From positions 16,994 to 80,993 of the forward strand of contig CAMPBS010000002.1 in assembly GCA_946639585.1 (NCBI GenBank): DNA of 64,000 bases, given 5' to 3'. Every line of letters starts with the position of its first letter. Positions within the stretch are counted from its first letter, which is position 1. Below are positions 41,528 through 62,606 of the stretch, piece after piece. The position numbers were made by a program, and so were the translations under genes. This DNA comes from an uncultured Clostridium sp. (GTDB lineage Bacteria > Bacillota > Clostridia > TANB77 > CAG-508). The notes under the pieces are model-generated. The model saw only the letters and a program-made list of their open reading frames with translations, searched no databases and had not been told where the DNA came from.

Positions 41528-42304
41528 ATGGAAACAAACAAATTAAAAACAATCTCAAATTTATTTGAAGGAAAAGAAATTAGGAGTGTGTGGGATTCAG
41601 AAAAAGAGGAATATTATTTTAGCGTTGTAGATGTAATAAGTGCTTTAACGGACAGTAATAATCCAAGACATTATTGGGCAGTTTTAAAATCTAGGTTAAA
41701 AATAGAGGGAAGTGAAGTGGTCACAAATTGTGACCAGTTGAAAATGTTAGCTCCAGATGGGAAAATAAGATTAAGAGATGCAATGATTACCAAAGACATT
41801 TTAAGATTAATTGAATCAGTTCCTAGTCCCAAAGCAGAGCCATTTAAATTATGGTTAGCACAAATGGGAAGTGAAAGGATTGACGAAATATTTGATCCAG
41901 AAAAAGCTATAAAAAGAGCAATAGATTATTACAGAAATAGAGGGTATTCAGATGACTGGATTGAAAGAAGATTAAAAGGAATATTAGATAGAAATAAATT
42001 AACAGATGTATGGAAAGAAAATGGAATTAAAGAGAATTACGAATTTGCAGTTTTAACAAATGAGATTTACAAAACCTGGTCTGGAATGAAAGCATCAGAG
42101 TATAAGGCTTTTAAAGGAATAAGAAAAGAATCTTTAAGAGATAATATGTCAGATATAGAAGTTGCACTTACAGATTTAGGCGAAATAGCTACAAGAGAGT
42201 TAGCTAAAAAGCACAAACCACAAGGCTTAAAAGAAAATAAAAAGATAGCAAAAGAAGGTGGGGAAGTGGCTAAAACTGCAAGAAATGATTTAGAAAAAAA
42301 TTAG
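41528..42304 (+). CDS. Bro-N domain protein (phage antirepressor / DinD-like)
   Basis: It has a Bro-N-like N-terminal region (SVWDSEKEEYYFSVVDVISAL...FKLWLAQMG). Confidence 0.6.
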   Translation: METNKLKTISNLFEGKEIRSVWDSEKEEYYFSVVDVISALTDSNNPRHYWAVLKSRLKIEGSEVVTNCDQLKMLAPDGKIRLRDAMITKDILRLIESVPSPKAEPFKLWLAQMGSERIDEIFDPEKAIKRAIDYYRNRGYSDDWIERRLKGILDRNKLTDVWKENGIKENYEFAVLTNEIYKTWSGMKASEYKAFKGIRKESLRDNMSDIEVALTDLGEIATRELAKKHKPQGLKENKKIAKEGGEVAKTARNDLEKN

Positions 42305-45978: not shown

Positions 45979-46022
45979 AAAATATTATGTTAATATGTAA
46001 TTAGTTTTAATTATAAAAGCTT

Positions 46023-46096
46023 GCGAACGTAGCCAAATTGGGAAGGCAACTGCTAGGAGTAGTAGAGATGAGAAGGTTCGAATCCTTCCGTTCGCA
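46023..46096 (+). tRNA. tRNA-like sequence with a defective anticodon arm (probable pseudo-tRNA or integration scar)
   Basis: It has an acceptor stem (GCGAACG/CGTTCGC), a canonical T-arm (GAAGG-TTCGAAT-CCTTC) and a D-arm. The anticodon stem (CTGCT/AGTAG) closes only a 6 nt loop. A terminator hairpin follows at 46101-46130. Confidence 0.4.
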
Positions 46097-46278
46097 TAAA
46101 AATAGAGACTTTGTGTCTCTATTTTTTTATTCTATTATTTTTGTGTTTTAAAAAATATAAAAAATACTTGACAGTCAATATAAATCTATATATAATACAA
46201 ACAAGAATTTGAATACCAATATATATAAATGGAAAATAATGGATGCAAAAATACAATTAAAAGAAAGGAAAACTTAAA

Positions 46279-53832: not shown

Positions 53833-54373
53833 CGCAAGAAAAACAAATTTTATAATAAGGATGGCAATACTGATTTCATTTGCTGTAGGAATAGGTCTGG
53901 TTTTTATAAATAGATTTACAACGCCAGATATCAAATGGGCGGGATATTGTAATGCAGGAATTGTATATGTTTGGGTAACAGTTTTGTATGCATTAAACAA
54001 AAATGTAAATATTGCAAGTCATTTATTTATTCAAATGGTTGCATTATCAGCTTTATGCGTATACTTTGATATAAGGCTAGGTTTCCAGGCGTGGTCAATT
54101 AACCTTGCGATTCCAATGATTGTAATAATTATAAATATTACAATGATGATATTATCAATAGCAAGTTATAAAAACTACATGAGATATGCTTTTTTTCAAT
54201 TACTAATAGTTTTAGTAAGTTTGGTACCAATATTTTTGGTTTATGAACATTTGGTAAATGATAAAACACTAAGCATAGTAGCATCAGGGATTTCAGGTTT
54301 TAACCTTTTGATGAGTTTAATATTTCATTTTAAAGATATAAAAGAAGAAGTAATAAGAAAATTTCATATCTAA
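53807..54373 (+). CDS. hypothetical multi-pass membrane protein
   Basis: It has about 5 TM helices and overlaps the acyltransferase stop, so it is probably co-transcribed. Confidence 0.45.
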   Translation: MMLYPQKINARKTNFIIRMAILISFAVGIGLVFINRFTTPDIKWAGYCNAGIVYVWVTVLYALNKNVNIASHLFIQMVALSALCVYFDIRLGFQAWSINLAIPMIVIIINITMMILSIASYKNYMRYAFFQLLIVLVSLVPIFLVYEHLVNDKTLSIVASGISGFNLLMSLIFHFKDIKEEVIRKFHI

Positions 54374-54450: not shown

Positions 54451-55128
54451 ATGAAAAAGTATGTATGCGAATTTTTAGGTACATTCATTTTGGTACTTTT
54501 AGGATGTGGAAGTGCAGTTTTAGCAGGAGGATACATAGGAGTTGTAGGAGTAGCATTAGCTTTTGGTTTATCAATAGTTGCAATAGCTTACTCAGTAGGT
54601 AGAATATCTGGTGGGCATGTTAATCCAGCTGTATCACTTGCTATGTTAATTAATGGAAAAATATCAGTAAAAGACTTTTGCGGTTATGTAGTAGCACAAA
54701 TTGCTGGTGCTTTTGCAGGAAGTGGAATATTAGCACTAATTGTTAGTATGACAGAATTAAGAAATGCAGGATTAGGGGCAAATGGATTTGGAGATGCATC
54801 TGCTGTAGGATTAACAATGGTAGGAGCATTAATAGTTGAAATAATAGCTACATGTATATTTGTATTAGCTATATTAGGAGTAACACATAATGATAAACTT
54901 TCTTCAAAAGCAGGTATTGTTATAGGATTAGTACTTGCATTAGTTCATTTAGTATGTATTCCATTAACAGGAACTTCTGTAAATCCAGCAAGAAGCTTAG
55001 CTCCAGCAGTTATACTTGGAGGAGAAGCTTTATCACAAGTTTGGGTATTTATAGTTGGACCACTTGTTGGTGCAGTAATTGCAGGTTTATTATGGAAATT
55101 CCTAGCAAAGAACGAAGAAGAGATATAA
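54451..55128 (+). CDS. aqpZ: aquaporin (MIP family)
   Basis: It has two NPA boxes (SGGHVNPAVS and NPARS). Confidence 0.9.
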   Translation: MKKYVCEFLGTFILVLLGCGSAVLAGGYIGVVGVALAFGLSIVAIAYSVGRISGGHVNPAVSLAMLINGKISVKDFCGYVVAQIAGAFAGSGILALIVSMTELRNAGLGANGFGDASAVGLTMVGALIVEIIATCIFVLAILGVTHNDKLSSKAGIVIGLVLALVHLVCIPLTGTSVNPARSLAPAVILGGEALSQVWVFIVGPLVGAVIAGLLWKFLAKNEEEI

Positions 55129-55188
55129 TAAACAAATCAAATGAAAATATTTAAAAAGTTAAAATGTTTAAACATTTTAACTTTTTTT
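54983..55188 (+). repeat. 206 bp direct repeat, left copy (aqpZ 3' end plus terminator)
   Basis: It is identical to 57732-57937. Confidence 0.9.
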
Positions 55189-55290
55189 AGTTAGTATAAA
55201 CTTTTTTGTAGAAAAATTCAAAAAAATGACAAGTACACTTGACAAAAAACATAATATATGATATTTATAAAATATAGAAGAGGTGGTTTT

Positions 55291-55626
55291 ATGGATAAAA
55301 AAGATATTTTATCTAAAGCTAAAGAAGAACCAGATGAGATGGAATTTGATATACAGGCAAAATCATTAGGAATTAGTACAATTATTATTCCATTGTTATG
55401 TTTATTTTATGTAATTATTAGAATTAGTACTAATTATTACATAATTAGTGATTTAATAGTGTTGGTATTATCGCAAATATTAATCCAACAAATATACCAG
55501 TATGTAAAGATGAAAAATAAAAAATATTTATTATTCATTATACTAACATTTATACTCACATGCATATTTTTTATTAATTTTTTAAATGAGGTGGGTTATG
55601 AGAGATTCATTAATTTTAAAAAATAA
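55291..55626 (+). CDS. hypothetical membrane protein (partner of the downstream XRE regulator)
   Basis: A GAGGTGG RBS precedes 3-4 TM helices. Its end overlaps the XRE gene. Confidence 0.45.
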   Translation: MDKKDILSKAKEEPDEMEFDIQAKSLGISTIIIPLLCLFYVIIRISTNYYIISDLIVLVLSQILIQQIYQYVKMKNKKYLLFIILTFILTCIFFINFLNEVGYERFINFKK

Positions 55627-55807
55627 ATTAAAAGAAATTAGAAAAGAATGCAATATATCACAGGAAGAGCTTGCAAAAGAGGTTGGAGTTTCAAGACAAA
55701 CTATTAGTTCTATCGAAACTTATACTTATTTTCCTAGTGCTAAATTATCCTATTTACTTTGTATTGCATTAGATAAAAAATTTGAGGATATATTTTATTT
55801 TGATTAG
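55598..55807 (+). CDS. XRE-family HTH transcriptional regulator
   Basis: The HTH region is QEELAKEVGVSRQTISSIE, preceded by a GAGGTGGG RBS. Confidence 0.75.
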   Translation: MRDSLILKNKLKEIRKECNISQEELAKEVGVSRQTISSIETYTYFPSAKLSYLLCIALDKKFEDIFYFD

Positions 55808-55819
55808 GATGGGAATACG

Positions 55820-56482
55820 ATGAAAAAATTTTTGAATATAAGAAATCTTTTAATTATATTAATTGTTTTAATAGTGTGTGTATATATTATTTTTATGAGA
55901 TCCCCAAATCCTGGTGATTCAAAAACATCAGAATTGTTTTATAATTTGATTAACAAAGATATAATTACAATGAGATTAAGTTATGATGGAGAAGATAGAA
56001 AAGAAAATATTATATTTAGTACAAATAAGAATATTGGTAAAACTATTAAAATTATTGAATTGTGTGATTTTAGTAAAGAAGCTAAAGAATTAAATGTCTC
56101 ACATATTAAAAATATAACAATTATAGAAAATAATAAATCACATACTTTTCAACTTAATTATGATTTAAATAATTATATAGATTTTGAAGAGGAAGCATAT
56201 GGCGAGGAACTTACAGAATGGATTGAAAATATAAATAATATAGTTAGCAAAAGTAAGTATTATGTGAAAGGCTATAAAAACATAAATAATACTGAATTGT
56301 TCACTGAAACCTTTCCTGAACAAGACTATATGTTTGGTTATGTTAGTAATGAGTTAAAATATATTAAATCAAAAGATAGTTTTTCTGGAAATGGAAATAC
56401 TATGTATGAAGTCGAATTAGATGATGATTTTATTAATAATTCATTACTAGAAATTCCAAATTATTTTAATTTAAATAATTAA
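55820..56482 (+). CDS. hypothetical membrane-anchored protein
   Basis: It has an N-terminal TM helix and is Asn/Ile-rich. Confidence 0.45.
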   Translation: MKKFLNIRNLLIILIVLIVCVYIIFMRSPNPGDSKTSELFYNLINKDIITMRLSYDGEDRKENIIFSTNKNIGKTIKIIELCDFSKEAKELNVSHIKNITIIENNKSHTFQLNYDLNNYIDFEEEAYGEELTEWIENINNIVSKSKYYVKGYKNINNTELFTETFPEQDYMFGYVSNELKYIKSKDSFSGNGNTMYEVELDDDFINNSLLEIPNYFNLNN

Positions 56483-56502
56483 ATGATAGAAAGGAGGAAA
56501 AC

Positions 56503-56733
56503 ATGAATAAATTGTCTAAGATACTAATATGTATAATTATTTTGTTAGTTATAGCTTTAGGCTATTTAATATATAAAGTTAATTATTTTAAAGATGGATA
56601 TTTACAAGCATCAAATACTTTATATGACCAAACTAAATTACTTGAAGATTCAGGAGTAGAGATCATTAGTAATGAAAATAATAAGACAGAAATACATATT
56701 AAACAATCTGGTAAAGTAATTATAGATAGATAA
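56503..56733 (+). CDS. hypothetical small membrane protein
   Basis: A GGAGGAAAA RBS precedes a single TM helix. Confidence 0.4.
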   Translation: MNKLSKILICIIILLVIALGYLIYKVNYFKDGYLQASNTLYDQTKLLEDSGVEIISNENNKTEIHIKQSGKVIIDR

Positions 56734-57139
56734 AATGTAAACTATATACAACCAATAGTTTGATGAAATTATTAAATAATACTCTTGAAAAACATGATAT
56801 TCTTGAGTCATTCCACTTATTGATGTGGGAGACTCAAGATTTTTTATATTCATAAGATTTCTAAAAATTCCACCTTTTGGGTTTTATTTGATATTCTACT
56901 ATTTTTGACTAAAAATCATAAATTTTATATATTTAAGGGTGAAATATTTAATGTGGTCTTATCACAAGTTATTCATAGATTTTTAATTAGCTACTTGACG
57001 TTAGCATAAAATTGTGTTATAGTAATTGGGTCTTTAATCAAAGTTATCTACTCTTAATAACTTATAATAAAGTTATTAATATGTAGATTGTTTTATTTTG
57101 AGTTGCCATACAATAAAAAAGAAAGAAGGACCTTTTATT

Positions 57140-57565
57140 ATGAAAAAAATTTTCTCTATGATGTTAGCATGTGGTATGGCTTCTGTTATGGCACTTAGTA
57201 ATGCTAGTGTTGTATCGTACGCTGCAAACTATAATACACCGATGGCTAATGGAGTCGTTAAGGCTGATACCTATAATAACGGCACAATAATTAATACAAC
57301 ATGGAAGACGATTGCAACATCTTCTTCTGGATTTAATTGCAATGTATATGTAAAATGTATGAATACAACGTTTGTACCGAATACATTGACAGTTTCTCCG
57401 ACAGATATTAGAATGCTTGACAGAAATGGCAATGTGGTTTGGGAAGAATGGGGGGCTGTTGCTGGATTAGGAAACAGAACTTTTTGGTGCGGAAAAAATG
57501 TTTGTAAAATCCAGGCAAGGTGTAAGGTTGGAAATGGAACTATTTATGTTCGCAGAGCAAACTAA
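57140..57565 (+). CDS. secreted Cys-rich small protein (signal peptide plus 7 Cys), possible bacteriocin/toxin-like
   Basis: A signal peptide (MKKIFSMMLACGMASVMALSNA) is followed by a Cys-rich mature region. Its G+C is somewhat higher than neighbouring sequence. Confidence 0.5.
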   Translation: MKKIFSMMLACGMASVMALSNASVVSYAANYNTPMANGVVKADTYNNGTIINTTWKTIATSSSGFNCNVYVKCMNTTFVPNTLTVSPTDIRMLDRNGNVVWEEWGAVAGLGNRTFWCGKNVCKIQARCKVGNGTIYVRRAN

Positions 57566-57731
57566 TTATAAATAACTATTTAAAATATATTGGGCAACTT
57601 AAAAGACACAAAGCAGTAGAAGAATGGATTCTTTTACTGCTTTTTATGTGTGATAGGCATGTCGTTTGGCTTATCGGTGAAAGCCCGTAGAGGTAGGTAT
57701 ATATTGCTAACCCCATAGAGAAGCATAAGCT

Positions 57732-57937
57732 ATCCAGCAAGAAGCTTAGCTCCAGCAGTTATACTTGGAGGAGAAGCTTTATCACAAGTTTGGGTATTTA
57801 TAGTTGGACCACTTGTTGGTGCAGTAATTGCAGGTTTATTATGGAAATTCCTAGCAAAGAACGAAGAAGAGATATAATAAACAAATCAAATGAAAATATT
57901 TAAAAAGTTAAAATGTTTAAACATTTTAACTTTTTTT
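57732..57937 (+). repeat. 206 bp direct repeat, right copy (orphan aqpZ 3' fragment plus terminator)
   Basis: It is identical to 54983-55188. Confidence 0.9.
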
Positions 57938-58004
57938 TATTATATCTTTATTTTTCTTTGAAAATATGGTAAAATATACAAGATTTTTAAAAATGGAGAA
58001 GAAA

Positions 58005-58862
58005 ATGGAAAGATATCAAGAAATAGAAAGAAGTCTTATAACTAAATATAGAAAAACAATATGGACAAAATTCATAAAAGGAATCCAAGAATACGACATG
58101 ATACAAGATGGGGACAAAATTGCAGTATGTATATCAGGTGGTAAAGATTCAATGCTACTTGCAAAATGTTTTCAAGAACTTTTAAAACATGGCAAAATGA
58201 ACTTTGAATTAGTATTCATGTGCATGAATCCAGGGTATAATGAAGAAAATAAACAAAAAATAATCGAAAATGCTAAAATATTAAATATTCCTTTAACAAT
58301 GTTTGAAACAAAAATATTTGATACAGTTGTTAATATAGATGACCATCCATGTTATATATGTGCTAGAATGAGAAGAGGGCATTTATACAAAAAGGCAAGA
58401 GAATTGGGATGCAATAAAATTGCACTTGGACACCATTTTGACGATGTAATAGAAACAATATTAATGGGAATGATTTATGGTGCGCAAATGCAAACAATGA
58501 TGCCAAAATTACACAGTTCATTTCATGAAGGGATGGAACTGATTAGACCATTATGTTTTGTTAAAGAACAAGATATAATAAATTGGAGAGATAGAAATGG
58601 TCTTGAATTTATCCAATGCGCTTGTAGATTTACTGAAAATGAAGCAAAAGCAAATGATGATGAAATAGGCAAAAGGGAAGAGATGAAAAGGCTTATAAGA
58701 GAGCTTAGAAAAAAATATAAAAACGCAGATATGAATATATACAGAAGTGCACAAAATGTGAATTTAAATACTCTTTTATCATATACTAAAAATGGGGAAA
58801 CACATACATTTTTAGAAGATTTTAATAAAAGAAAAAAAGAAATTCAAGATAAGGCCCAATAA
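58005..58862 (+). CDS. ttcA: tRNA 2-thiocytidine(32) synthetase TtcA
   Basis: It has the PP-loop SGGKDS and Cys motifs (CYIC ... CAC). A GGAGAAG RBS precedes the ATG at 58005. Confidence 0.8.
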   Translation: MERYQEIERSLITKYRKTIWTKFIKGIQEYDMIQDGDKIAVCISGGKDSMLLAKCFQELLKHGKMNFELVFMCMNPGYNEENKQKIIENAKILNIPLTMFETKIFDTVVNIDDHPCYICARMRRGHLYKKARELGCNKIALGHHFDDVIETILMGMIYGAQMQTMMPKLHSSFHEGMELIRPLCFVKEQDIINWRDRNGLEFIQCACRFTENEAKANDDEIGKREEMKRLIRELRKKYKNADMNIYRSAQNVNLNTLLSYTKNGETHTFLEDFNKRKKEIQDKAQ

Positions 58863-58933: not shown

Positions 58934-59007
58934 GCGGGTATAGTTTAATGGTAGAATCCCATGCTTCCGACCTGGTGGTGAGGGTTCGATTCCCTCTACC
59001 CGCTCCA
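58934..59007 (+). tRNA. tRNA-Gly (anticodon UCC) with encoded CCA
   Basis: GCGGGUA acceptor stem, GUUUAAUGGUAGAAU D-arm, CUUCCGA anticodon loop (UCC), GAGGG-UUCGAUU-CCCUC T-arm and 3' CCA are all present. Confidence 0.85.
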
Positions 59008-59973
59008 TTTGAAGACAACTTACGGACTAATTAAAGTTCGTAAGTTTTTATTTTGCCCGTAGTTAGGCTTGGAAAGGCTTGTTCTACCAAATATAAAGAT
59101 AATGTTCTCTTTCTAGGAAGAAGGACGTTTAGAAGTAGAACTTATTGAAGCACAAGTTGTAAAAAAATACTACAAGAGCAAATCTAGAAAAGAATAAACA
59201 TTCCAATTATGGAGAGCATATAACTAGAGATGATAACTACAATATTGAGATTAAAAATATCAAATTCACAGAAGAATTTATCTCAAAAAGTACAAAAGAT
59301 TATATTGATTATTTAAACGAATTATTAACTGATAATAATATTGGTATAACTTATAAAGAACAAATTAATAAAGAAAAATTATTAGAATTAGAAAAAGATT
59401 ATACCATTATGTAATTAGTAAAAATGGAAAATAATCTATATTCTGAAGAAGAATTAAATAACTATATTGATTTAATGAAAGAACATTTCTATGTAGATGG
59501 AATTATAAATTGCCCTTATATTGAAGGTAATAATATAGTTGATACTTTAATTCTAATACCAAAAACTGAACTAATAAATGTTTAAAAATTAAGAAAGGAA
59601 TGATAAAAATATGGAAATAAAATATACAAGACCAGGGGATTATATTAAAAATGATGAAAGACTGTCTGAAAAAAGTAAAGAATTAAATCTTATAGAATGG
59701 ACAAAGTTAATGAATAATTACAAGAATATGGCAGAAGAAATTGTCTTAAATGAATATGTTTTTGTATAAATAATCTTAAAAAAAGAGGAAAAAATTATCA
59801 AAATAATTTAATCCTCTTTTTATATTTTTTTCTAATATGGGAGTAAAATTCGTGTCTAGCCAGCACTGAATTTATACTCCCGTATAAATTCTTCTATGGG
59901 AATTCCCATACCATTTAATGGAAATAAGATTATTAATTTACAAATAATTCCAATTATAAATTATAATTTATAG

Positions 59974-61356
59974 TTATCTATATTGTTTTTTTAATAGATA
60001 ACCTATTTTATATATTCCAGTTGAAAGCATTAATATAGAATTTATAATTAAAATTAAAGCTAAATCTTTTACAAAATCCCATATAACCCAAAATGGAACA
60101 CTTATAATTGTTGGTATTAAAATTAATACTATTGGCAATAGTAAATGTCTTGCAATATCTATAATATATAGTTTCTTTGTTTTATTTTTATTCTTCCAAC
60201 TCTTAATAGTTATAATTGGATACAAAGCAATAATAGTAATAACTATATATATAGCATCAATTAGTAAATGATTTATTATATATAAGTTATTTGATACTTC
60301 TGTTTTTTCTTCTCCCAAAAGGGGTTTTACAGTATCTTCTAGTAAATTATTTGTAACTAAATAATCATTCATATTAACAAGAACAACTACTCCTATATTA
60401 CTTTCTGGAATAATGAACATTTTAGAAGTATAATTCTCAACCAATCCGGAATGTGTCAAAATTGGTTTACTATAATATTTGGTATATTCCCATCCCATTC
60501 CATAGTAAGCTCTATCTATATCATCTTGAGGTATATTATCGTAAAACATTTGATGAATACTATCTTCACTTATAATATTCACACCATTATTTAGATACAT
60601 TTGTAAATATTTGCCCATATCGCTAGCACTAGAACTAATATAACCAGCAGGCACTTGTGACCAAGAATTTTTGGTAGGATAATTTGGTTTCTCTGCAATA
60701 GGAAAGCCAAAATAATTTTGATAACCTTTTATTAATCCATTCTTATTGCTTCCTTCTAAGGTTGCCGAAGTATGATTCATTTCAAGTGGTTCAAATATAT
60801 TTTTAGTAACATAATCAGAATAACTCTCATTACTTACTGATTCAATAATTTTTCCTAATAGATTATAATTAGCATTTGCATATTCATACTTACCATAGTT
60901 TTTTGTTATTTCTATACTTCCTAACTTTTGATAAGTTCCAATTCCACTATTTTGATTTAATAATTGCTTTATTGTAATCTTATCTCCATCTTCTTTATTT
61001 TTGAAATAAAGTGATGTATCAATGTAAGTAGAAATCGGTTTATTTATATCTATTCTTCCTTCTTCTACTAATTTCATAATAGATAAAGCTGTAAATGATT
61101 TACTCAATGAACCTATTATAAAGGGTGTATCAATACTTTTACAATTACCATAAGTTTTTGAAAACACTACCTCATTTGAATTTACAACTACTACAGACAT
61201 ACCAGGAATATGATTCTTTTTAATTTTGGTTTCTAATTCTTTACTTACGGCTTCATAATCAATATTATCACTTTTAGCATACACATTATAATTTCTACCC
61301 AAAAAATATACAAAGATACAACACATTATAATTAAAATTTTATATATCTTTTTCAT
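59974..61356 (-). CDS. serine hydrolase, beta-lactamase-family (PBP4*-like) with C-terminal TM region
   Basis: It has a signal peptide, an SxxK motif (SLSKS) and C-terminal TM helices. Confidence 0.7.
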   Translation of the reverse strand: MKKIYKILIIMCCIFVYFLGRNYNVYAKSDNIDYEAVSKELETKIKKNHIPGMSVVVVNSNEVVFSKTYGNCKSIDTPFIIGSLSKSFTALSIMKLVEEGRIDINKPISTYIDTSLYFKNKEDGDKITIKQLLNQNSGIGTYQKLGSIEITKNYGKYEYANANYNLLGKIIESVSNESYSDYVTKNIFEPLEMNHTSATLEGSNKNGLIKGYQNYFGFPIAEKPNYPTKNSWSQVPAGYISSSASDMGKYLQMYLNNGVNIISEDSIHQMFYDNIPQDDIDRAYYGMGWEYTKYYSKPILTHSGLVENYTSKMFIIPESNIGVVVLVNMNDYLVTNNLLEDTVKPLLGEEKTEVSNNLYIINHLLIDAIYIVITIIALYPIITIKSWKNKNKTKKLYIIDIARHLLLPIVLILIPTIISVPFWVIWDFVKDLALILIINSILMLSTGIYKIGYLLKKQYR

Positions 61357-61407
61357 TAGATCATCTCACTTTCAAATTACTATTTAGCGATTTTTAATTC
61401 GCCATAA

Positions 61408-62439
61408 TTAATTTTCTTCATTTAATTCAAAGTTTTTCTTTTCTTCTTCAACAGCACTAATTAATTCTTGTTCTGTTGGCATATGTAATTTATACTCAGA
61501 AGAGAATATCGTTTTATTATCTTCTGGTAAAGTATATTTTACAACTGTTTCATTTTTATTTGTTGAAAGTAATATTCCAACAGTTGGATTTTCATCATCT
61601 TGTTTAATTTCTCTATCATAATAATTAACATACATTTGCATTTGTCCTATATCTTGATGAGATACTTTTCCAATTTTTAAATCAATAATTACAAAACATT
61701 TTAAAAGCCTATTATAAAAAACTAAATCTGGATAAAAATGATCTTCTTCTAATGTTAACCTTACTTGGTTTCCAACATAACTAAATCCTTTTCCTAGTTC
61801 TAATAAAAAATCTTTTAAATGTTCTATAATATTCTTTTCTAAATCAGATTCTAAATAATCTGTATTTTCCTTTATATCTAAAAATTCCAATACAAAGGGG
61901 TCTTTAACTAAATCTTTACTTGTTTTTAATATTTGTCCTTTTTCAGATAATTCTAATATTTTATCTTTATCAGCAGATAAAGTTAATCTTTCATATAATA
62001 ATGAATCTCTTTGCCTTTGAAGCTCTCTAACACTCCATTTAGAGTTGATACATTCATTTAAATAAAAATTTCTTTTTGGTTCTTCATCTATTTTAATTAA
62101 CTCTAAATAATGCGACCAACTCAATTTGGCAGACACTGTCTTCCAAATTGGATACATTAGATAAAATTTTCTCATAGTTCTTAAATTTCTTGATGAAAAG
62201 CCTTTACCAAATTCAGTAGTTAATTTTTGAGATAATTTATCAAGTACAGCATCACCATAACTTGCTCTTTCATCACCTTGTTGTATTTCCATAATTGCTT
62301 TTCCTATATTCCAGTATAAATTAAGCATTTCAGTATTGACGGTTTGATATACTTTATTTCTACTATTTATAACTAAATCTTTGATATTATCAAAAATATT
62401 ATTTATTTCATTATCGCTTTTTATTAATTCATTACTCAT
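61408..62439 (-). CDS. PDDEXK nuclease domain protein, YhcG/DUF1016 family
   Basis: It has an N-terminal DUF1016-like region and a C-terminal restriction-endonuclease-like fold pattern (IIDLKIGK...Q). Confidence 0.6.
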   Translation of the reverse strand: MSNELIKSDNEINNIFDNIKDLVINSRNKVYQTVNTEMLNLYWNIGKAIMEIQQGDERASYGDAVLDKLSQKLTTEFGKGFSSRNLRTMRKFYLMYPIWKTVSAKLSWSHYLELIKIDEEPKRNFYLNECINSKWSVRELQRQRDSLLYERLTLSADKDKILELSEKGQILKTSKDLVKDPFVLEFLDIKENTDYLESDLEKNIIEHLKDFLLELGKGFSYVGNQVRLTLEEDHFYPDLVFYNRLLKCFVIIDLKIGKVSHQDIGQMQMYVNYYDREIKQDDENPTVGILLSTNKNETVVKYTLPEDNKTIFSSEYKLHMPTEQELISAVEEEKKNFELNEEN

Positions 62440-62606
62440 TAGCTTCCTCCAATCATTTATATATTAAAGACTTCATATGTATAAATTATACAATAAATAT
62501 GGGAATATTTCCATACTCCCATTGAAATTTAATAAGAATTCATATATAATATTTTTAGAAAGAGAACGTTATAGTTCGTAAGCTGTAGCTTAATCGCTCC
62601 AAAAAT

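Follow-up and report, generated by a model that had tools for sequence, protein, structure and literature searches.

Among the described systems closest to the locus analysed here, the e14 prophage is reportedly located in icd of E. coli, and the replacement icd end that it carried, at ~165 bp, is near in length to the 206 bp repeat of our locus but diverged. CIMEs are att-flanked ICE or IME remnants that lack recombination genes, for example at fda in Streptococcus thermophilus, and the core of an att site is typically a few tens of bp. In E. coli experiments, when a circular molecule that contained part of a chromosomal locus recombined with the chromosome by a single crossover, 109-950 bp of that locus were duplicated (PMC3240628). 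In PMC5361080, homology-facilitated illegitimate recombination (HFIR; de Vries & Wackernagel 2002 and Prudhomme et al. 2002, cited therein) is the model invoked for displaced gene ends.

Against this background we examined the interval between aqpZ and ttcA in the window, a 64,000-nucleotide stretch of DNA from an uncultured rumen bacterium (features in Table 1). Our favoured interpretation, held with moderate confidence, is that a recombinase-free five-gene cassette was recently gained at this position by one rumen Clostridia lineage through host homologous recombination and not through an integrase. The preliminary description of the window had reported an exact repeat made up of the last ~146 bp of aqpZ and the 60 bp behind it with the terminator, and both statements hold: R1 and R2 are identical at 206 of 206 positions, have a spacing of 2,749 bp with 2,543 bp between them, and comprise the final 146 bp of aqpZ followed by 60 bp that include its terminator. 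Chance cannot account for so long a repeat. Identity ends on the left at 54982/57731 (A vs T), the edge falling within the codons of the second NPA motif (V-N-P-A-R) of aqpZ, and on the right at 55189/57938 (A vs T), where the edge is the T-run behind the 34-nt perfect palindrome (55153-55186) of the aqpZ terminator hairpin. The aqpZ gene is intact in occupied and empty alleles alike, and its product matches the NCBIfam aquaporin Z model with an E value of 1e-68 and 230.9 bits, slightly below the model's curated cut-off of 256. R2 is non-coding, with an in-frame stop four codons upstream, and its right flank (TATTATATC...) is the one present in all empty alleles.

Table 1. Features of the aqpZ-ttcA interval, with coordinates given as positions in the window.
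Feature	Coordinates	Strand	Evidence or remark
aqpZ, aquaporin Z, 225 aa	54451..55128	+	Pfam MIP, E 6e-52
R1, left repeat copy: last 146 bp of aqpZ and 60 bp	54983..55188	+	100% identical to 57732-57937
aqpZ terminator, palindrome and T-run	55153..55188	+	second copy at 57902-57937
AGTTAGT, 7 bp non-resident, sister-species-like aqpZ-downstream sequence	55189..55195	+	alignment
Candidate palindromic operator, consensus GTCAAGT-NN-ACTTGAC, over -35 of cassette promoter	55228..55243	+	
DUF6442 small membrane protein, 111 aa	55291..55626	+	Pfam PF20040, E 1e-15
XRE-type HTH regulator, 69 aa	55598..55807	+	Pfam HTH_3, E 3e-14
220-aa protein, N-terminal membrane helix and LolA/LprG-like half beta-barrel	55820..56482	+	
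76-aa protein, N-terminal hydrophobic helix	56503..56733	+	ORF kept in every cassette context
Hairpin and T-run behind four-gene operon	56802..56845	+	read from sequence
Promoter-like site of 141-aa gene, TTGACG-17-TATAGT with TG	56995..57023	+	
141-aa secreted beta-jellyroll protein, signal peptide, 5 Cys in mature part	57140..57565	+	
Intrinsic terminator of 141-aa gene, right end of conserved cassette	57610..57643	+	
86 bp stretch, 44% G+C, joined directly to R2	57646..57731	.	no homologue found
R2, right repeat copy: displaced resident aqpZ 3' fragment with terminator	57732..57937	+	identity to R1
ttcA, tRNA 2-thiocytidine synthetase, PP-loop, right-hand chromosomal neighbour	57966..58862	+	Pfam ATP_bind_3; NCBIfam TtcA, E 2e-55

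A perfect repeat could in principle have been mis-joined or falsely duplicated during assembly, and short-read assemblies do break at the repeat (L004, L130 and L134). Nevertheless, seven contigs from independent metagenome assemblies (L001, L002, L007, L012, L014, L015 and L134) each contain one junction, left or right, or the two together. The first six of these, from several samples and several assemblers, provide both junctions as well as whole R1-insert-R2 spans, and an artefact of this kind is very hard to credit. Logan contigs are built with k=31 and are broken by the 34-nt palindrome, which also seeded one chimeric contig (L127); the Logan contig ends at 55182, considered as possible branch points between alleles, were dismissed as breaks of this type.

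The empty-site allele whose existence in relatives the preliminary description had raised is present both within the species and outside it. At least six same-species contigs (L006, L009, L125, L126, L128 and L131), with a flank identity of 99.3-99.9%, carry a single repeat copy followed by ttcA, and the two closest sister species, L019 (88% nucleotide identity) and L020, are likewise empty, indicating that the ancestral state at aqpZ-ttcA is empty. Flank SNPs separate the empty contigs from the occupied haplotype in five of the six, that is, in all those with enough flank sequence, and the empty alleles are not fresh excisions from that haplotype, which in turn carries a private allele in its left flank (54175 C). 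In addition, the insert sequence of eight other contigs, 10.9 kb in total, shows not one substitution, although their flanks do vary, which supports a recent gain of the insert in one lineage, as had been suggested from the exactness of the repeats. The insert between aqpZ and ttcA is best described as an ordinary accessory islet that is strain-variable.

The sequence that immediately follows R1 carries a trace of the incoming DNA. Downstream of aqpZ, the sister species L019 has TTTTTTTAGTTAGTGC whereas the resident, empty allele has TTTTTTTTATTATATC, and the blastn alignment to L019 extends through 55195, so that the AGTTAGT behind R1 matches the sister species and not the resident allele. 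We estimate the chance of such a 7 bp match at about 1e-4 to 1e-3. The match indicates that the incoming DNA brought its own aqpZ end, and it marks the left repeat side as donor-derived. R1 and R2 are 100% identical, yet the 8 bp that follow them differ at five positions; this speaks against the favoured route in so far as it requires either a donor of the same species whose allele had diverged locally or gene conversion at a later time.

At the other end of the insert, homology to other cassettes stops at about 57645, and the 86 bp stretch that follows ends on its right in a novel non-homologous joint with R2 (57731|57732), at which no microhomology is visible, the donor side being out of view. 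BLAST against 135 fetched loci identified no homologue of these 86 bp, Rfam gave no match even at a permissive threshold, exact 23- and 24-mers in viral and JGI metagenome contigs matched the same locus only, and none of the six translated frames is aqpZ-like. Folding gave the terminator as the only strong structure. Two candidate identities for the stretch, the 5' end of a class C group II intron inserted behind the terminator and an IS200/IS605 left end as in L099, found no support.

The insert itself is a conserved cassette of five genes. The gene content given in the preliminary description, namely an overlapping membrane protein/XRE pair, two membrane proteins and a secreted protein of higher G+C, stands, with the DUF6442 and XRE genes overlapping by 29 nt and the 141-aa gene at 37% G+C, the remaining four genes being at 22% and the window as a whole at 28%. 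The seven Cys ascribed to the secreted protein need correction: there are six from the ATG at 57140, one of which lies inside the signal peptide, and seven only if an upstream TTG start is used; only two Cys are invariant among homologues. The 76-aa protein had no family match in Pfam or NCBIfam, and we found no literature on DUF6442. The segment at 56734-56940, which holds the hairpin behind the four-gene operon, is without a homologue in the other cassettes, making ~200 bp specific to this window. The operator palindrome is present with at most one mismatch in all five cassette contexts. L099, L109 and L118 have a second copy in front of the 141-aa gene; in our window the promoter of this gene retains only the right half. 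Since the palindrome is kept at both promoters across lineages, we read the cargo as a single regulon, in which the XRE repressor would bind the operator over the -35 element and presumably control the DUF6442, membrane-anchored LolA/LprG-like, small membrane and secreted jellyroll proteins together. The cargo looks like a cell-envelope or surface module.

Cassettes with 65-90% amino acid identity to this one occur in four other chromosomal contexts, none of them beside aqpZ and none with flanking repeats. The cassette adjoins a truncated large serine recombinase gene in another lineage (L109-L113) and a TraG-like gene in L118, so that it does travel alongside mobile-element genes. L099 is the sole context with a Y1 transposase beside the cassette, and in L114 the cassette is flanked by a Bro-N homologue. 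The latter led us to consider the region at 26-47 kb of our window as a prophage, an idea that was rejected on finding that 36-41 kb is the chromosomal hrcA, dnaK, dnaJ cluster (Pfam). A neighbouring islet at tRNA-Gly is present in the same region of the window.

Domain scans of the five insert ORFs (Pfam, NCBIfam and PADLOC) detected no recombinase or transposase domain, only DUF6442 and the XRE HTH, which bears out the earlier statement that the insert holds no integrase. No terminal inverted repeats were found at the insert ends, and exact-protein look-ups of the cassette proteins returned this locus only. A transposon or insertion sequence was rejected for lack of a transposase domain and of inverted repeats at the ends, and 206 bp is far beyond any target-site duplication. 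Similarly, a prophage or phage satellite was rejected: in phage and plasmid records the XRE gene alone matches, and weakly, and no relative of the 220-aa protein was found in IMG/VR viral contigs. Finally, among 80 aqpZ loci from other genomes none has a second aqpZ fragment within 6 kb.

The preliminary description had likened the structure to a phage or integrative element entering the 3' end of a gene. What remains of that proposal is a genuine insertion at the aqpZ 3' end that brought its own gene end and left a dead copy on the far side, as evidenced by the 7 bp tail and the empty site; the analogy to an element that targets the site is not supported, given the missing recombinase and inverted repeats, the failure to find relatives on viral contigs, the 80 aqpZ loci without a second fragment and the four repeat-free contexts. 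A related possibility is that the cassette and its aqpZ end form an integrative element of the e14/icd or CIME type, either decayed or cis-mobilisable, with R1 and R2 as attL and attR and a tyrosine or serine recombinase that is encoded elsewhere or was lost. Such an element would account for the topology, which is that of elements entering a gene 3' end and supplying a replacement end, and for the single repeat copy at the empty site; direct repeats that stem from the target gene's 3' end are indeed present in the form of the 206 bp aqpZ repeat, the cassette lies beside a truncated large serine recombinase or a TraG-like gene in other genomes, and the neighbouring tRNA-Gly islet shows that the region accepts insertions. 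We nevertheless regard this explanation as unlikely, because the insert holds no recombinase, 206 bp of perfect identity far exceeds a typical att core, no relative was found on viral contigs, and reuse of the site by related elements was seen neither at the 80 other aqpZ loci nor in the other cassette copies, which lie away from aqpZ without flanking repeats.

A further explanation is that the 2,749 bp unit of repeat plus cassette is currently active as a circle or tandem array and moves between strains by re-entering aqpZ through its captured end. One contig (L013/L123, AUXO014216298.1) is 2,748 bp long, circularly permuted and spans 55084 to 57831, that is, one 2,749 bp period minus the base at 55083/57832, where the population has an A/G SNP (further SNP positions in the repeat are 55056 and 55133); its length and span indicate that the assembler walked the right part of the repeat, the insert and the left part of the repeat as a cycle. 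The contig is suggestive of a circle or tandem array without proving either, and the insert is in addition invariant across samples with differing flanks. However, any de Bruijn graph will contain a cycle for an R-insert-R arrangement, clipping of low-coverage tips can isolate such a cycle, and no replication gene is present, making current activity quite improbable; the full circle junction pattern had no match in viral contigs, the only collection scanned for it. Slightly more doubtful again is the bolder proposal that the unit is a minimal recombinase-free mobile element, looping out as a circle by RecA recombination between its repeats, spreading between strains and re-entering any genome with the same aqpZ end. 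If it were true, a stolen piece of a conserved host gene would serve as attachment site, and the permuted contig and the invariant insert amid differing flanks would be traces of a spreading unit. Formation in place with no homologous crossover, for instance by replication template switching or by capture of foreign DNA at a break with 206 bp of staggered fill-in, would fit the exactness of the duplication and the coincidence of its right edge with a strong hairpin, a possible site of replication stalling. It leaves unexplained both the donor-type 7 bp tail after R1 and the private 54175 C, and we know of no bacterial precedent for target duplications of 200 bp; we give it even less credence than the mobile-unit proposals, if more than an assembly error.

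Homologous recombination, which we favour, has a perfectly identical 206 bp repeat as the expected product of a single crossover, and the length of the duplication falls in the experimental 109-950 bp range (PMC3240628). A donor allele signature lies beside one copy of the repeat (AGTTAGT after R1, with 54175 C in the left flank), and one joint is without homology, the sequence to the left of 57731|57732 having no similarity to aqpZ. We propose a related strain as the source of the incoming DNA, one whose cassette would lie directly behind the aqpZ terminator; the DNA would have included 206 (+7) bp from the 3' end of aqpZ. The DNA may have circularised and undergone a Campbell-type single crossover with the chromosomal aqpZ end, or one of its ends may have paired in aqpZ while the other was joined illegitimately at the NPA codons, as in HFIR. 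Either event would yield the order aqpZ - R1 - cassette - 86 bp - R2 - ttcA, with aqpZ kept intact and the resident 3' end persisting downstream as a dead copy. RecA-dependent recombination between the 206 bp repeats could delete the cassette again. The donor arrangement, aqpZ-cassette without R2, was found in no collection searched, so that we infer the route solely from its product. The unexplained 86 bp before R2 and the lack of visible microhomology at the joint also count against this route, and an integrase encoded outside the 64 kb window may have acted in trans.

On this favoured reading, the locus is a clean natural case in which an uncultured rumen bacterium acquired an accessory operon with no dedicated recombinase involved, occupied and empty alleles still segregating and a donor-allele signature lying at the junction. 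It would also illustrate that att-like duplications of gene ends can arise by plain homologous recombination, which calls for caution in island-finding pipelines. The cargo of DUF6442, XRE, LolA-like and jellyroll proteins appears to be an envelope module, as yet uncharacterised, that has been relocated widely among gut Clostridia. Neither the recombination example nor the cargo overturns current understanding.

In comparison with known systems, the locus resembles e14 in icd in that the target gene is intact, its 3' fragment is displaced to the far end of the insert and relatives have an empty site, but e14 encodes an integrase and its icd end is diverged, whereas the aqpZ insert is without an integrase, its repeats are identical and there is no evidence of site reuse at aqpZ. 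With CIMEs it shares the form of a small recombinase-free element between direct repeats at a gene 3' end, but the repeats of CIMEs are short att sites that a resident ICE family also has, and no family or att core of this sort was seen at aqpZ. Another parallel is provided by the orphan 3' ends of Rhs, CDI and T6SS effector loci (PMC5361080), where homology on the upstream side likewise lets a new module in and the former 3' end, from a conserved motif onwards, is shifted downstream. Polymorphic toxin tips and immunity genes are exchanged at those loci, whereas the duplicated aqpZ end is identical and follows no toxin/immunity logic. The likeness to Campbell-type integration and HFIR is that the foreign DNA lies between direct copies of a chromosomal segment brought in by the incoming molecule, that one joint is non-homologous and that no dedicated recombinase is needed; the aqpZ case differs in being a polymorphism found in nature, in a rumen bacterium that is uncultured.

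The two copies of the direct repeat (R1, left; R2, right) proved identical over 206 bp at a spacing of 2,749 bp when the window was searched for repeats. Since the end of aqpZ lies within R1, the repeat comprises the terminal 146 bp of the gene plus 60 bp downstream, in agreement with the extent, terminator included, given in the preliminary description. The MIP family protein encoded by aqpZ scores 230.9 bits against the NCBIfam aquaporin Z model, slightly below the cut-off of 256. The left edge of the repeat lies in sequence encoding the second NPA motif, and the right edge is the T-run behind a 34-nt perfect palindrome, the aqpZ terminator hairpin. All k=31 Logan contigs end at 55182 in this palindrome, and a chimeric inverted-duplication MEGAHIT contig (L127) has it as its axis; these effects on contigs are an assembly hazard, not biology.

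Coordinates of the repeat, the insert and other features of the window
Feature	Position	Remarks
aqpZ	54451-55128	MIP family
R1	54983-55188	left repeat copy
aqpZ terminator palindrome	55153-55186	34 nt
Insert	55189-57731	2,543 bp, five genes
DUF6442 gene	55291-55626	
XRE regulator gene	55598-55807	overlaps DUF6442 gene
220-aa protein gene	55820-56482	
76-aa protein gene	56503-56733	
141-aa protein gene	57140-57565	secreted
Segment between cassette terminator and R2	57646-57731	86 bp, 44% G+C
R2	57732-57937	right repeat copy
Terminator palindrome, second copy	57902-57935	
tRNA-Gly(TCC)	58934-59007	
tRNA-Gly islet	59008-62594	3,587 bp
Alternative ~3.2 kb insert site	62708/62709	between tRNA-Gly region and rplM
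tRNA-Pro (ARAGORN)	46022-46097	anticodon AGG, unusual in bacteria; between DUF3006 and Bro-N genes
Bro-N gene	41528-42304	after dnaJ
TraG-like ORF	13029-15365	778 aa

The arrangement of R1, insert and R2 is real: it, or one of its junctions, was independently assembled in L001, L002, L007, L012, L014, L015 and L134. Nor is it fixed, because aqpZ followed by a single repeat copy and ttcA, the empty-site allele that had been proposed for checking, was found in six contigs of the same species (L006, L009, L125, L126, L128 and L131; flanks 99.3-99.9% identical) and in both sister species. The latter, MAGs RGIG8360 (L019, 88% nucleotide identity) and RGIG2424 (L020), are the closest relatives in genome collections, and their empty sites indicate that the empty state is ancestral; exact-protein look-ups assign the window to an uncultured Clostridia species of ruminant gut metagenomes. 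The empty alleles are not fresh excisions: the five empty contigs, out of six, with sufficient flank are all distinguished by flank SNPs from the occupied haplotype, which carries a private allele at 54175. Moreover, the insert shows zero substitutions in 10.9 kb summed across eight other contigs while its flanks vary, which points to one recent gain; a recent event was one of the two possibilities raised earlier from the repeat identity. One occupied contig, L002, has seven SNPs in 58 bp of ttcA (58217-58274), two of which (58217 and 58223) have the sister-species state; the cluster resembles a short tract imported by recombination.

Directly behind R1, the 7 bp at 55189-55195 (AGTTAGT) agree exactly with the post-terminator aqpZ sequence of L019 (TTTTTTTAGTTAGTGC) and differ from the resident allele behind R2 and at every empty site (TTTTTTTTATTATATC); we put the probability of a match like this arising by chance at ~1e-4 to 1e-3. 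The left aqpZ-derived segment therefore reaches 55195 and, being of a different allele, arrived together with the insert, consistent with the earlier proposal of a carried replacement gene end. R2, which is non-coding because of an in-frame stop four codons upstream, is with its resident right flank the original aqpZ end, now displaced. The sole non-homologous joint is 57731|57732. The source of the 86 bp to its left was not traced in Rfam, by translation, among 135 loci or by exact matches in viral and JGI metagenome contigs.

The five genes of the insert form a conserved cassette, homologous to the window from ~55195-55227 through a terminator at ~57645, that recurs in four other contexts with 65-90% protein identity and, for the first four genes, up to 93% nucleotide identity. 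It lies between an HD-domain gene and tadA (L115-117, four genes only), a TraG-like gene and a MurJ-like flippase gene (L118-122), truB and an IS200-type Y1 transposase gene (L099-104), or a Bro-N gene and a 5'-truncated large serine recombinase gene (L109-114). No copy in these contexts has flanking direct repeats or adjoins aqpZ. In another lineage (L109-L113; e.g., L109 3300-3979), the truncated recombinase consists of a 196-aa Zn-ribbon and coiled-coil part with an in-frame remnant upstream, and is followed by one of three contexts (ylqF, ParA or a 252-aa protein with DUF1919). The window itself encodes a Bro-N protein 79% identical to that preceding the cassette in L114 and a homologue of the TraG-like protein preceding it in L118, so the cassette has been moved between conserved chromosomal settings in related genomes. 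Every context has a palindrome, GTCAAGT-NN-ACTTGAC, over the -35 element of the promoter of the DUF6442 gene, and three have it again in front of the 141-aa gene, so that the five genes look like one XRE-controlled regulon. The 141-aa protein is secreted, as described previously, but has six Cys from its ATG start (one inside the signal peptide); the seven reported require an upstream TTG start, and just two are invariant among homologues. Searches of defence systems, phages and plasmids related nothing in the cassette beyond the generic XRE gene, and the most plausible reading of the cargo is a module of the cell envelope or cell surface. Contigs L012 and L014, which come from different samples and assemblers, share an exact start at 57036, in front of the 141-aa gene, that is explained by neither a repeat nor a variant.

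We somewhat favor a homology-driven route for the insertion. The identical 206 bp duplication, the one-sided donor-allele tail and the single illegitimate joint are the expected product both of a single crossover joining a circular molecule that bears the aqpZ segment to the chromosome and of homology-facilitated illegitimate recombination (HFIR) of a linear fragment. Single crossovers of this type gave 109-950 bp duplications of the homologous locus in E. coli (PMC3240628), and HFIR has been proposed elsewhere to explain displaced gene ends (PMC5361080). Integration by an integrase acting in trans, as for e14/icd-like or CIME-like elements, would produce the same overall topology, and the preliminary description had likened the insert to phage integration into gene 3' ends. 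Insertion with its own aqpZ end is borne out, but the insert encodes no recombinase or transposase (no integrase, as noted before) and lacks terminal inverted repeats, none of 80 other aqpZ loci has a further aqpZ fragment within 6 kb, and no relative was found in the viral contigs searched. We therefore regard an integrase in trans as unlikely, retaining some probability for it because the 64 kb window is part of a genome in which a recombinase may lie elsewhere.

A third reading, that the unit is a minimal recombinase-free circle whose attachment site is a gene end captured from the host, seems quite improbable. It draws on a 2,748 bp contig (AUXO014216298.1; L013/L123) running from 55084 to 57831, one repeat period less the single base 55083/57832. 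Strains carry either A or G at that base, indicating that the assembler walked cyclically through the right part of the repeat, the insert and the left part and broke at the bubble. Because any de Bruijn graph turns a repeat-insert-repeat array into a cycle, the contig is compatible with a circle or tandem array without proving either. Under the favored homology-driven route and integration in trans alike, R1 and R2 should make the cassette deletable by RecA.

A separate islet follows the nearby tRNA-Gly gene; its borders are marked by a direct repeat of 7 bp, CGCTCCA, which is the tRNA 3' end. It encodes a TnpV-like 52-aa ORF, a 460-aa beta-lactamase-fold protein and a YhcG/DUF1016 nuclease-like protein, with no integrase, and is missing from L006, L019, L125, L126, L128 and L131. 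Strains that have neither of the window's islets instead carry, as does the sister species, a ~3.2 kb insert (L125 7112-10368; L019 7904-11036) with ORFs of 94, 194, 342, 101 and 240 aa that have no Pfam matches, making the ttcA-rplM interval a hotspot whose content comes in at least three alternative forms.

The aqpZ insert thus differs from integrative elements of gene 3' ends in having neither a recombinase nor a site seen to be reused at the loci compared, resembles them in its topology, and shows the features expected of a homology-driven insertion; with a cargo that is uncharacterised, it is a new example of an already known type of event.
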